Assembly: GCA_036172245.1 (NCBI GenBank)
Contig: JAYWIR010000039.1
Location: 1,488,001 to 1,552,000 of the forward strand
Direction: 5' to 3'
From: Raillietiella orientalis
Lineage: Eukaryota
Length of the DNA stretch: 64,000 bases
Below are positions 3,001-21,401 of this stretch, one piece after another. How positions within the stretch are numbered: the stretch's first letter is position 1; each line of letters begins with the position of its first letter. A program made the translations under genes and the position numbers. The notes under the pieces were generated by a model. It was given only the letters and a program-made list of their open reading frames with translations. It was not told the DNA's origin and ran no database searches.

Positions 3001-3098
3001 ATTCGTTTATCATCACAACTACTTGTAATGCTAACCTGAGCCTTTGCAAATTGTGCAGCAAGTGAAATACAGCGTGCTCGTCCTAATCGGGAAGGGAT

Positions 3099-3121
3099 TT
3101 CACACGCTTCCATCGTGGGAA
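3099..3121. promoter_or_regulatory. Two Su(H)/CSL consensus sites ~250 bp upstream of the Hey ATG
   Basis: TTCACACG at 3099-3106 (CGTGTGAA on the minus strand) and CGTGGGAA at 3114-3121. Hey genes are established Notch/CSL targets. Confidence 0.65.
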
Positions 3122-3362
3122 CGCAATGGGGAAGTGACTCGCACGCTGGGAAGATGCAGCATGCAAGACAGACGACTTTTCTAGCTTGCGTTAGGTCGAC
3201 CGTGTGTCAGTTTTGCAGGAAGCATGGCATAGTGCGTGCTGAGCGTGCGTCACTGTACCTGCAATATTATGACCTAGTTAGTCAATACGGAAACCAAGGA
3301 ACGAAATTAATCGCCTAAAGATTTGACCTTTCTTAAAATCCGAGCATCCTCGACTCATGTGA

Positions 3363-17632: not shown

Positions 17633-20600
17633 TTACAATTCTTCATGATCATGAACTGCTTCATCAGCCTCTGGTGTTTCTTCTTTGGTTTCTTTGGGTT
17701 CATCTACAAATTCTGGTTCCTCCTCAATCTATTAAAGACATTAAGCAATGCAAAAAATAAATACACCTAACCTCAGCATCTTCAGGAATACCCAGTGACC
17801 GACTCATTAACTTTTCAATGGTTTCAGAAAATTCCACCGTATCCTTAAGCATGTAGCCAGACCTCAGTGTTGCTAGTTAAATAAACTTTCTGTGATATCA
17901 GCATAACCAAAAATAGAAATACCTGTGCGAAATAGCATCAATGCAGTCTCTCTTGCAATTGGATCTCCTTTATCACTTTTCACTCGTGCTAATAATTCTT
18001 TAATCAAAGGATGCCTTGGGTTGATTTCCATGGTTTTTTTTTGATTCAGATAATAACTAAAAAAAAGTTGTTGCTACAGTGTTAGTTTCCTTAAGATAAG
18101 AGCTCAGATAACCAATACCAAATCTTTTGAAAATCCCCATGCATGCATTACTATACTCACTCTTTTTGAATATCTGTACTTTTGGCATGGGCTTGGGAAA
18201 CAATAATGCGTTGCAGGTTGCCACTCCATCCAAAGCGAGAAGTAATCAGAGCACATGGAGAAACAGTCAAACGCTCCCCTATTTCAGCCTTCAAAATCTA
18301 CCACCCAACAAAATAATAATAAAAAAAAAAAACACTCCACTCCCCCACACAAGCATTCCCATTCACCAGAGCAAAACAGACAAATGAATACCAAGAAAGT
18401 TGACATACTTGCGCATTATATCATCCTGTTTCTGGAATGCTTGAGAAACAGCCAATCTTTCCATATTTCCAGTCCACCCATATGCACTGGCAACCAATGC
18501 AGATGGTGAACCACTTAAACGATTAGAAATAATAGCTTTAGAAATCTACAGAGGAGAAAACCCACACCAGTAAGAGTAAGAGACTGCTTGCTTCTGGTAA
18601 TGAGAACACAGGCTAAATTTCTTACATGTTCCTTCAGAACATCTTCTTCTAGCCATGTTAACAGATCCTTGAAAGTAGCTGTCAAGTTCTCCAAATACTT
18701 TTTGGCAGAATCTCCTTCATCAAGTGTAAATCCCTCTTTAGCCACATTCTGGAATTTCTTTCCTTCGAATTCCGGAAGTGCTGACAAGCAATATTCATCA
18801 ATAGCCTCAGTCAGATACAACACTTCATAGCCCTTTTTCAAAAGACTTTCCACAAATGGCGATGTTTCCACCTATTTGAAAATGATGTGACGTTAATTAT
18901 ATTTTCAATTTACCTCTTTTCTGTTAGCTCCAGCCACATAATATATGTGCTCCTGTTTTGGCTTCATTCTTTCAACATATTGTGATAGAGATGTGAGCCC
19001 CACACCAGGAGCTGATGTACCAAAGCGAACAAGCTTAGCCAATCGATTTCGATTAGCAGGATCTTCAATGATGCCCAGTTTAATGCTATTATAAAAATTC
19101 AGTGAGTATATTGCATGTAGCACATGCTGAATGTATACCACTTACTTGGTTGAAAATTCTTTCCAGAACTGGCCATAAGTCTCTTCTGAAATTTTTTTCA
19201 ACATATCCAATATTTTACGTACAATTTTTTTTTTAATCACCTACAAACAGACACATTATCCATGAAAAAAAAAAAAAAAAAAAAAACAATACCTTTATTA
19301 GTTTGTGCTGTTGCAATGTCTCTCGGGATACATTAAGTGGTAAGTCATCAGAATCCACAACCCCTTTGATGAAGCTCAAATAATTTGGTAACATATCTTC
19401 AATATTATCAGTAATAAATACCCTCCGAACATACAACTGAATTTTCTTTAATATCAGTCCACTCAAGTGTGCAGCTAACCTTTATGCTATCTGTTTTTGT
19501 TCCATATTTCTGAAAACTTTCAGCAGGCTGAACTTGTGGTACAAACAGTAAAGCACGGAAAGTTACTTCTCCTTCTGCTACAAAATGGGATTTGGCAAGT
19601 GGATTACTATTATCTTTTGTTATAGATTTGTAGAAATTATTGTATTCTTCCTCATCAATTTCTGCAGGTCTGAAAATCATTCCCATTAAAACTAAGATAC
19701 CTTACAATCAAAATAAAAATACTTTCGTGTCCAGATTGGTTTCACACTATTCACTAATTCCCAATCCCAAAGTGTTTTTTGTACTTTGACAAGTTTTGGT
19801 TTCTTTTCTTCAATCTCTTCTTCAACCTTTGCATCTTCAGAAGTCTCTTCTGTAGATTTCAAATCTGCTTTTTCATCTTCCTTTTCGGCATCTTCTACAG
19901 GTTCTTCTTCTTCAACAGTCTACGTTACAATGTAAAATCAACAAACATGATATATTCCATACTTTACTGCTCCAAATATAAATTGGGAAATTGATAAACT
20001 GACTATATTTATGAATTAATGTTTTTAATGTATCAACTTCTAGAAAGTCATAGGCTTCTTCTTTCAAATGAAGGCTTATCTGTGTTCCCCTTTTCAGAGT
20101 GTTTCCTCTGGGATCTTCAACAATAGTAAAAGAGCTTGCATCTGATTCCCAGATATATTGGACATCATCATTATGTTTGGTTGTTACCACAACCCTATCC
20201 GATGCTAAAGGTTCACAACTTAGCAAAATCTCATAAAGCTGTTAGAACCTTACTTAGAAAAGAAGAATAGAATCCAACACCAAACTGTCCAATGAGATCA
20301 TTGAATTCTTCGGTATTTTCTACTTCCTGAAGTTTGTTTAAGAATTCAGCAGTTCCTGATCTTGCAATAGTTCCTAAATTGTTGATCAGTTCATTTTTCG
20401 TCATTCCAATGCCCGAGTCAGTTATATGCAAAATATGGTTTTCTTTATCAGCCTGATTTTTAAAGACACAGCCAATGACCATTAACGACCCACAATGACC
20501 ACTTGATTACTACTCACCTTAATGCGAATACTAAGATCAGGATTTGTGTCTAAAACTTCCTTGTTGGTTAAAGATAATAACCTTATTTTATCAAGAGCAT

Positions 20601-21241
20601 CAGAAGCATTGGAGATTAACTCCCTTAAATAAATCTAACACAAGACTTAGTAAATGGCAATTTATAATTTCCCATCTTATTACTTCTTTGTTGCGATATA
20701 AAGAATTGATGATAAGTTTCATCATTCGATTGACTTCAGCTTGAAATGCAAACTTTTCTGCCCTCGCCCTCAGCTCTTTTACTTCAGCAACACTGAGTCC
20801 ATCAAGTCGAATTGCCTCTTCTTCTCTTTTAAGAACTTCATCATCTGCACAACATTCATAAACCAACAATGCTAGCTGATGATTTCAACAAGGCTACCTG
20901 TTCTTGAACCCTCTCTACTTGCACCAATATCTGCATCGGCAGTTGGTACATCTGAAGTGCTGGCAGCTGAAACACATTTGGACTTTGAGGAATCTGATCC
21001 GACACGGCACATTTCTACAAACACCGGCACCCCAAATGCGAAGGCATCAACACCCATTCACGGGGGAAGAGCAAAAAAAAAAAAAAAACAGAATTCATCA
21101 AGAACATGGTCTTACTGTTTAAGACAAAGTATTCAGCACCTTGACACTTTGGTCAAAATGCAATTCCTAAATCGGGGGTCGTAAGTTAGCCTTACCTATT
21201 ACTGAAACACTGAAACAAACAATGAAGATAAGCTTCAACAT
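17633..21241 (-). CDS. HSP90B1: Endoplasmin / GRP94 / gp96 (ER Hsp90). Exons in minus-strand order: 21196-21241, 20898-20966, 20684-20844, 20518-20634, 20254-20452, 19963-20204, 19723-19919, 19480-19669, 19293-19436, 19146-19240, 18914-19085, 18626-18871, [18409-18545 OR 18161-18297], 17923-18056, 17772-17872, 17633-17728
   Basis: Kozak-like gcaccATG and hydrophobic signal peptide [16 protein letters not shown]. Motifs seen: [87 protein letters not shown]-terminal ER-retention-like HEEL*. All introns are GT-AG with consistent phases. Confidence 0.97.
18161..18297 (-). CDS. HSP90B1: Alternative (mutually exclusive) GRP94 exon 13B
   Basis: tag|ATTTTG...AAAGA|gtgagt, 137 nt and open. Encodes [45 protein letters not shown](D), collinear with exon 13A (18409-18545, also 137 nt, same phases). 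Confidence 0.9.
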
Positions 21242-21382: not shown

Positions 21383-21401
21383 CCAATCACTTTTATACAC
21401 G
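21383..21401. promoter_or_regulatory. ERSE-like element upstream of GRP94
   Basis: CCAAT-CACTTTTAT-ACACG is CCAAT-N9-aCACG, one mismatch from the ERSE consensus CCAAT-N9-CCACG, ~150 bp upstream of the ATG. A second CCAAT lies at 21416-21420. Confidence 0.5.

Follow-up and report, generated by a model that had tools for sequence, protein, structure and literature searches.

Results

The GRP94 gene of the window

The DNA analyzed here, referred to as the window, is a stretch of 64,000 nucleotides from Raillietiella orientalis (contig JAYWIR010000039.1 of assembly GCA_036172245.1, positions 1,488,001 to 1,552,000), and its minus strand carries a gene for GRP94, the Hsp90 chaperone of the endoplasmic reticulum (ER), also known as endoplasmin or gp96. 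This gene contains two copies of its thirteenth exon, designated 13A and 13B, which are the subject of this report. The gene model was assembled from exon coordinates; all 15 of its introns are GT-AG and the joined exons form one open frame of 797 codons. The features concerned are listed below in the order of transcription, with positions in the window and residues in mammalian numbering.

17633-21241, minus strand: GRP94/endoplasmin (HSP90B1-type) gene, 16 exons, 797 amino acids with either exon 13, C-terminal HDHEEL
18626-18871, minus strand: exon 12, 246 nt, phase 0; constitutive, upstream of the pair; 90.8 bits to PF00183
18546-18625, minus strand: intron 12, 80 nt, GT..AG; joint 18545/18626 present in a contig of RNA run X1
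18409-18545, minus strand: exon 13A, 137 nt, phase 0 in and 2 out; class-A residues 631-676; the form in the RNA contigs
18298-18408, minus strand: intron between 13A and 13B, 111 nt; T-run shortly upstream of the 13B acceptor
18161-18297, minus strand: exon 13B, 137 nt, phase 0 in and 2 out; class-B alternative of the same segment
18057-18160, minus strand: intron between 13B and exon 14, 104 nt
17923-18056, minus strand: exon 14, 134 nt, phase 2 in; joint 18056/18409 present in a contig of RNA run X1

Intron 1 is 181 nt long and introns 2-12, 14 and 15 measure 42-80 nt, while "intron 13", at 352 nt (111 nt, the 137 nt of exon 13B and 104 nt), is the only long internal intron. The predicted N-terminus has a hydrophobic, signal-peptide-like leader and the C-terminus reads HDHEEL, of which we take HEEL to be a variant of the ER retrieval signal KDEL. 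Translations of the exons matched PF00183 (HSP90) with 97.6, 90.8, 40.3 and 37.8 bits (cut-off 24.4), and a 66-residue exon piece matched PF13589 (HATPase_c_3) with 22.8 bits, slightly below the cut-off of 25. When the 45-residue exon 13 peptides were searched against the PDB, endoplasmin chains scored 41-44 bits vs 28-34 bits for cytosolic Hsp90 chains. Relatives were gathered with exon 12 as the bait (2821 matches, 120 of them listed); among the matches listed, the named top relatives were mostly arthropod endoplasmins with at most 75% identity over exon 12, and no relative exceeded about 71% identity. By these matches the gene is a GRP94/endoplasmin, nearer to endoplasmin than to cytosolic Hsp90. 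In a FastTree analysis of the protein with exon 13 masked, it formed a long branch inside Pancrustacea, adjoining the malacostracan group.

Upstream of the gene, at 21383-21401 on the plus strand and approximately 150 nt from the GRP94 start codon (21241), there is a one-mismatch match to the ER-stress element, whose consensus is CCAAT-N9-CCACG. Matches to this element over the whole window are at chance level (2 found, 2.35 expected), and it is the position alone that is suggestive.

Two copies of exon 13

A first-pass annotation of the window, made from the letters alone, had described a second open exon in "intron 13" of GRP94, and the minus-strand sequence confirms it as described, with a length of 137 nt, phases 0 and 2, canonical splice sites and the peptides that had been given. 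Exon 13A is bordered by ctctgtag and gtatgt, and exon 13B by gggtggtag and gtgagt (AG/GT in both cases), with a clean pyrimidine tract at the 13A acceptor. The first base of exon 14 finishes the last codon, which encodes Asn after 13A and Asp after 13B. The two exons agree at 23 of their 46 residues and at 75 of their 137 bases (26, 28 and 20 of 45 at the three codon positions). Alone, each 45-residue peptide matched solved endoplasmin structures (E values of 8e-11 for 13A and 5.3e-10 for 13B) and passed the Pfam HSP90 cut-off of 24.4 over the same profile positions, 377/378-417, with 40.3 bits for 13A and 37.8 bits for 13B. A tblastn search with the spliced protein over the whole window returned exactly two copies of the segment. 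The resemblance between 13A and 13B is far beyond chance.

Inclusion of both exons leads to a stop at codon 690 and omission of both to a stop at codon 661, in agreement with the earlier statement that either would break the frame. We consider it very probable that 13A and 13B arose by tandem duplication and serve GRP94 as mutually exclusive exons, from which two chaperones of 797 amino acids would be made.

RNA was available from one small public run (X1), the sole run retrieved for positions 17700-18900, whose source is 95-99% similar to the window. Its contigs are spliced and confirm eleven GRP94 junctions. Record 1 spans 18409-18545 and is joined to 18626 and 18056 (exon 12-13A-14), and these two joints, 18626 to 18545 and 18409 to 18056, are among the four that the first-pass annotation had proposed to look for. 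Exon 13A is spliced into transcripts; that exon 13B is also used in this organism we infer.

Two segment classes in arthropod endoplasmins

Among the 120 matches listed, 104 span the exon 13 segment, and each of these segments was scored against both A and B. The difference (A minus B, in bits) divided them into 30 B-type and 74 A-type segments whose ranges do not overlap (at most -15.0 vs at least -1.9). The named B-type entries among the matches listed include the branchiopods Lynceus, Lepidurus, Eulimnadia, Sida, Daphnia magna "isoform X1" and others, the isopod Armadillidium, and one form each of three crabs, while the named A-type entries are from insects, a spider, a mite, a shrimp and the remaining forms of the crabs. 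All named insect entries among these matches are A-type and all named branchiopod entries are B-type. With the class-A segments of other arthropods, exon 13A shares 58-76% identity. Exon 13B is 60-73% identical to class-B segments of branchiopods, isopods, decapods and metagenome contigs, the same targets to which 13A is only 42-58% identical.

In several species the two classes occur side by side. The Scylla paramamosain entries P0088 and P0090 show 18 differences, none of them outside 631-675, and in Chionoecetes opilio the 20 differences between P0093 and P0094 likewise all lie within 588-632. Similarly, an unnamed, transcript-length entry (P0028) shows 23 differences to Daphnia magna X1 (P0029) within the segment, along with a 35-residue truncation of its own N-terminus. 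Judged by such comparisons, the two classes are isoforms of the same gene in Scylla, Chionoecetes and Daphnia. A profile search added B-type "isoform X1" entries of the prawns Macrobrachium nipponense and Palaemon carinicauda. The pair had been called hidden, and it was indeed missed in the open reading frame (ORF) track of the window; public protein sets, on the other hand, already carry both isoforms (crabs) or a B-type "isoform X1" (prawns and Daphnia magna).

One entry has two segments of the same class. P0124 (Diabrotica undecimpunctata, labelled "LOW QUALITY PROTEIN", 1331 amino acids) contains two identical A-type segments, at 468-512 and 1176-1220, which suggests two copies of endoplasmin, or a duplication in the assembly, fused in one model rather than an A/B pair.

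The duplicated segment and the client-binding domain

Alignments to solved structures place exon 13 at endoplasmin residues 631-673 or beyond (numbering of chain 9n9j_y3), and the segments were aligned over 631-676. Passages of PMC4868323 define the client-binding domain of gp96/GRP94 as residues 652-678 and report that its GWXGNMER motif is required for Toll-like receptor (TLR) interaction. In the excerpted text of PMC10112894, deleting the client-binding domain abolishes proinsulin binding by the Caenorhabditis elegans protein ENPL-1. By alignment, exon 13 covers most of the mammalian domain, to which the first reading of the window had also matched it. The motif reads GWTGNMER in 13A and GWSGNLQR in 13B, in which two positions differ from it, and class B generally has GWTGNM(Q/E)R. 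The Met-Met pair of the mammalian protein is replaced by M/A in 13A and L/I in 13B, just as had been noted.

From 18 A-type and 21 B-type segments we derived the following class-diagnostic positions (mammalian numbering).

Position 635: variable in A-type, E in B-type
Positions 648-649: V-A in A-type, I-T/S in B-type
Position 651: M/Q/R in A-type, R/K in B-type
Position 659: E in A-type, Q in B-type
Position 661: L in A-type, I in B-type
Position 662: A in A-type, I/V in B-type
Position 665: N in A-type, Q in B-type
Position 666: A in A-type, T in B-type
Position 668: Q in A-type, S/A in B-type

The window exons keep most of the residues of their class, the exceptions being Q665 in 13A and L658 and A666 in 13B. 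Based on their periodicity, positions 658, 661/662 and 665/666 would share one face of a helix. The Scylla B isoform was modeled with AlphaFold2 from a 55-sequence alignment, and the model, with a mean pLDDT of 56.9 and with residues 633-678 below 50, was set aside.

Tandem exons in other genomic contigs

A scan of metagenome contigs with a class-B profile (alignment A1) yielded 77 loci, of which 76 match the B peptide by tblastn. In 60 of the 76 the equivalents of exons 12, 13 and 14 follow each other without a break in one long frame that has the segment only once, and these sequences are mRNA-like or intron-less. Three unrelated contigs are genomic and contain both copies.

L019, 2772-2908 (A-like) and 3067-3203 (B-like): genomic metagenome contig, pair between the exon-12 and exon-14 equivalents
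L017, 458-594 (A-like) and 758-894 (B-like): genomic metagenome contig, pair between the exon-12 and exon-14 equivalents
L031, 346-482 (A-like) and 514-650 (B-like): genomic metagenome contig, with no exon-12 equivalent on the contig

All three have the layout of the window, with A before B, both exons 137 nt in length and AG/GT borders. In L031 the spacer between the exons (483-513) is only 31 nt (gtaagt...cttag). Since this is shorter than any intron of the window GRP94, splicing from A to B may be sterically impossible there, and in that lineage the exons may be exclusive by steric hindrance.

A different arrangement was found in six contigs of 5-11 kb (L010, L020, L028, L035, L040 and L050), each of which has an endoplasmin ORF of 823-880 codons, full-length and either B-type or intermediate, that is unbroken at exons 11-14 and is without an A-like copy; these may be intron-poor genes of B-only lineages. 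In the model of the sea spider Nymphon striatum (P0123) both copies stand in series, A-like at 634-678 and B-like at 687-731 with 8 residues between them, although the first halves of the two are without a clear class type. The presence of both copies in one protein is probably an annotation error by which the pair is read through or mis-spliced. For chelicerates, P0123 is nonetheless the one indication of the pair.

Age of the duplication and selection on both exons

In a tree of the 45-residue segments, all B-type exons (among them 13B and the B exons of L017, L019 and L031) fell on one side with an SH-like support of 0.958, and all A-type exons fell on the other along with the chelicerate and insect sequences. 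When Nymphon was added, the second Nymphon copy joined the B side and the split had a support of 0.933. The simplest reading is that there was likely one duplication before the split of chelicerates and mandibulates; the duplication of exon 13 is old, then, and possibly arthropod-wide.

For the two cladoceran-like contigs, L019 and L017, pairwise Nei-Gojobori estimates of omega (dN/dS) came to 0.157 in exon A and 0.017 in exon B; in the first-pass annotation, a value near 1 for exon B would have counted against the proposal. For exon 12 of the same contigs the proportion of nonsynonymous differences (pN) is 0.026 and synonymous sites are saturated. Saturation also applies between the window and other lineages, for which the proportion of synonymous differences (pS) is 0.80-0.94 and pN is 0.23-0.26 for B and 0.30-0.36 for A. 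The lower omega and pN of B indicate that exon B is constrained at least as much as exon A. These estimates place both exon classes under purifying selection and, together with the grouping of class-B exons across taxa and the recurrence of the tandem in genomic contigs, they uphold the proposal of an old duplication so maintained.

The cladoceran-like A exons (L019, 2772-2908; L017, 458-594; and P0028) evolve approximately 10x faster than their B partners, and their motif tryptophan is shifted, with WGITGNMER or WGMSGNMER instead of FGWTGNMER. The branchiopod entries suggest that in this group B is the main form and A a specialized form.

Splicing control

We propose that each GRP94 pre-mRNA would retain one of 13A and 13B, giving isoforms that differ only in 46 residues where the C-terminal domain begins, namely a strand region and the second C-domain helix with GWxGNMER. 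As the exon length of 137 nt is 3n+2, transcripts with both exons or neither are out of frame and meet an early stop, and the reading frame thereby enforces exclusivity. Such transcripts would presumably be removed by nonsense-mediated decay, and the choice of exon would be set by splicing factors at the two acceptors.

Other means of exclusion were considered for the window. Steric exclusion was rejected, as the intron between 13A and 13B is 111 nt and the same gene splices introns of 42 nt. Inverted repeats in 18040-18640 are short pairs only, for example one of 15 nt and 73% that joins intron 12 to the A-B intron. Folding of the region is no stronger than that of shuffled sequences (z of +0.98, with 18 of 20 shuffles folding as well), and no intron-intron duplex in the window, L019 or L017 beats mononucleotide shuffles (fraction as good 0.19-0.97). 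Competing RNA structures of the docking/selector type were, accordingly, not found at these three loci against shuffled controls. Such structures belong to some exon clusters only and do not define the class. Ten nucleotides in the 3' part of exon 13A (18434-18443) are perfectly complementary to ten in the A-B intron (18350-18359), and by estimate chance alone would give about 0.17 pairs of this kind in 601 nt; their pairing could mask the 13A donor region.

Discussion

What the two isoforms may do

Each class keeps its own conserved helix residues, and the isoforms are therefore expected to differ in the contacts of this helix, that is, in how positions 659, 661, 662, 665, 666 and 668 would meet clients or the neighboring middle (M) domain. 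Among the functional options, we regard a difference in client range as roughly evenly balanced against the rest. The widest reading, which we hold to be plausible rather than probable, is of an arthropod-wide GRP94 splice switch that predates the chelicerate-mandibulate split and exchanges the helix with which the ER Hsp90 clamp contacts clients. On this reading each isoform would have a client set of its own; one might, for instance, be of general use and the other dedicated to certain receptors or secreted proteins. Lineages would then have kept both exons (decapods, water fleas, this organism and the sea spider), A only (the named insects) or B only (the copepod-like intron-poor genes).

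A possible but more doubtful view is that both exons are used with an equal client range, and that the swap tunes the interface between the M and C-terminal (C) domains and closure of the clamp, dimer stability, or expression via unproductive splicing. Chimera work, in the part of PMC5100913 that deals with it, marks the M/C interface as an important structural unit of Hsp90, and class-specific residues also occur ahead of the helix (635, 648, 649 and 651). Lineages with a single class moreover seem viable, given the A-type named insects among the matches listed and the many full-length B-only ORFs. Against such tuning, the most consistent differences between the classes are on the helix with GWxGNMER and the Met pair, which the available passages of PMC4868323 report as needed for TLR interaction.

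Several observations weigh against our reading of 13A and 13B as an old pair that is still in use. Exon 13B has no cover in the X1 contigs from one small run, in which only the A form is seen, and the two junctions proposed for it in the first-pass annotation (18626 to 18297 and 18161 to 18056) are likewise without cover there. At its acceptor, a long T-run is followed by a purine-rich stretch right before the AG. The peptide is off the B consensus at two otherwise nearly invariant positions, 658, which is L instead of M, and 666, which is A instead of T, and 13B is on a long branch in the exon tree. More generally, the exon trees are of 45 residues with FastTree local supports only, the A side is no clean clade after rooting, and most of the database proteins and all of the metagenome contigs are unnamed, while the named gene models may be predictions and not sequenced transcripts.

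The points that concern 13B itself would also fit with its being a silent relic of an ancestral pair of which only 13A is still spliced here, as insects appear to be A-only. We consider this improbable. The frame of 13B is open, its splice sites are canonical, and its length and phase are exactly kept. It retains 60-73% identity to B exons of distant crustaceans despite saturated synonymous sites (pS 0.80-0.94), including most class-B residues (E635, I648-T649, R651, Q659, I661, I662 and Q665), and an unused intronic stretch of 137 nt would not persist in this way. As for the RNA, contigs lose minor forms, and hence X1 attests the use of A, tells nothing about B, and as a single run cannot prove its absence.

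That A-like and B-like exons arose repeatedly, their likeness being due to convergence or to gene conversion within lineages, is the least probable of the alternatives: the shortness of the segments in the exon tree (45 residues), the strong divergence of the cladoceran-like A exons and the poorly typed first halves of the Nymphon copies would allow it, but the A-then-B order, 137-nt length and phase are equal in the window and three unrelated genomic contigs, about 10 diagnostic positions are common to branchiopods, malacostracans, the window and the second Nymphon copy, and the A/B split has a support of 0.93-0.96.

Returning to the splice switch, if it is real then the pattern among lineages is a natural mutagenesis series for client choice by GRP94. 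Client selection in the Hsp90 family is poorly understood and the client list of GRP94 is unusually narrow. One gene that has long retained two versions of a helix implicated in client binding, each with conserved residues of its own, offers a ready-made comparison, and a swap of about 10 residues between natural isoforms in tractable animals (Daphnia, crab cells) could reveal the helix residues that determine client range or the behavior of the clamp. There is also a consequence for annotation, in that gene models with only one of the exons, or with both as in the sea spider, misdescribe the locus.

Comparison with known systems

No description of exons used alternatively in GRP94, endoplasmin or Gp93 came up in a full-text literature search, which did not extend to the supplements of genome-wide exon catalogues, where the event could be listed. 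GRP94 and alternative splicing are mentioned only in unrelated passages of the text seen of PMC3017093, and the text seen of PMC3228551 has no mention of endoplasmin, Gp93, heat shock or Hsp90. The GRP94 pair is apparently annotated in public sets but unstudied.

Tandem-duplicated, mutually exclusive exons are a well-known kind of event in arthropods. In the clusters of muscle myosin heavy chain and Dscam (cf. PMC2257972 and PMC3535345), adjacent homologous exons of equal length and phase have their own splice sites, one is used per transcript, and a structural element is swapped; the GRP94 pair shares these features, the use of one exon per transcript being as proposed above. The features used for prediction in a portion of PMC3228551, namely conservation of exon length, splice sites and reading frame together with homology of the exons, are likewise found in the pair. 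Unlike those clusters, GRP94 has two variants only, encodes a chaperone, and by its 3n+2 length alone puts transcripts with both exons or neither out of frame. Competing intron RNA pairings of the Dscam type gave no sign in the GRP94 pair (window, L019 and L017 vs shuffles). Human tandem duplicated exon substitutions, described in portions of PMC9741552 and PMC8373072, are of the same kind, an ancient homologous substitution of one region, and those catalogues cover human genes.

In mammalian gp96/GRP94, the motif and helix of the client-binding domain lie within the aligned exon 13 segment (631-676). The solved mammalian chains have one version of the segment, which mixes A-like (V648-A649, E659, A666 and Q668) and B-like (I661 and Q665) residues, and mammalian GRP94 presumably has a single exon there.

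The closest counterparts are the public endoplasmin isoforms, which are gene models with no stated interpretation; the window organism itself has no entry among the matches listed (best 75% over exon 12). The Scylla and Chionoecetes isoform pairs are identical outside the 45-residue segment. In Scylla paramamosain, Chionoecetes opilio, Portunus trituberculatus, Macrobrachium nipponense, Palaemon carinicauda and Daphnia magna the event is the same as in the window, and the A and B types of these isoforms are orthologous to 13A and 13B.

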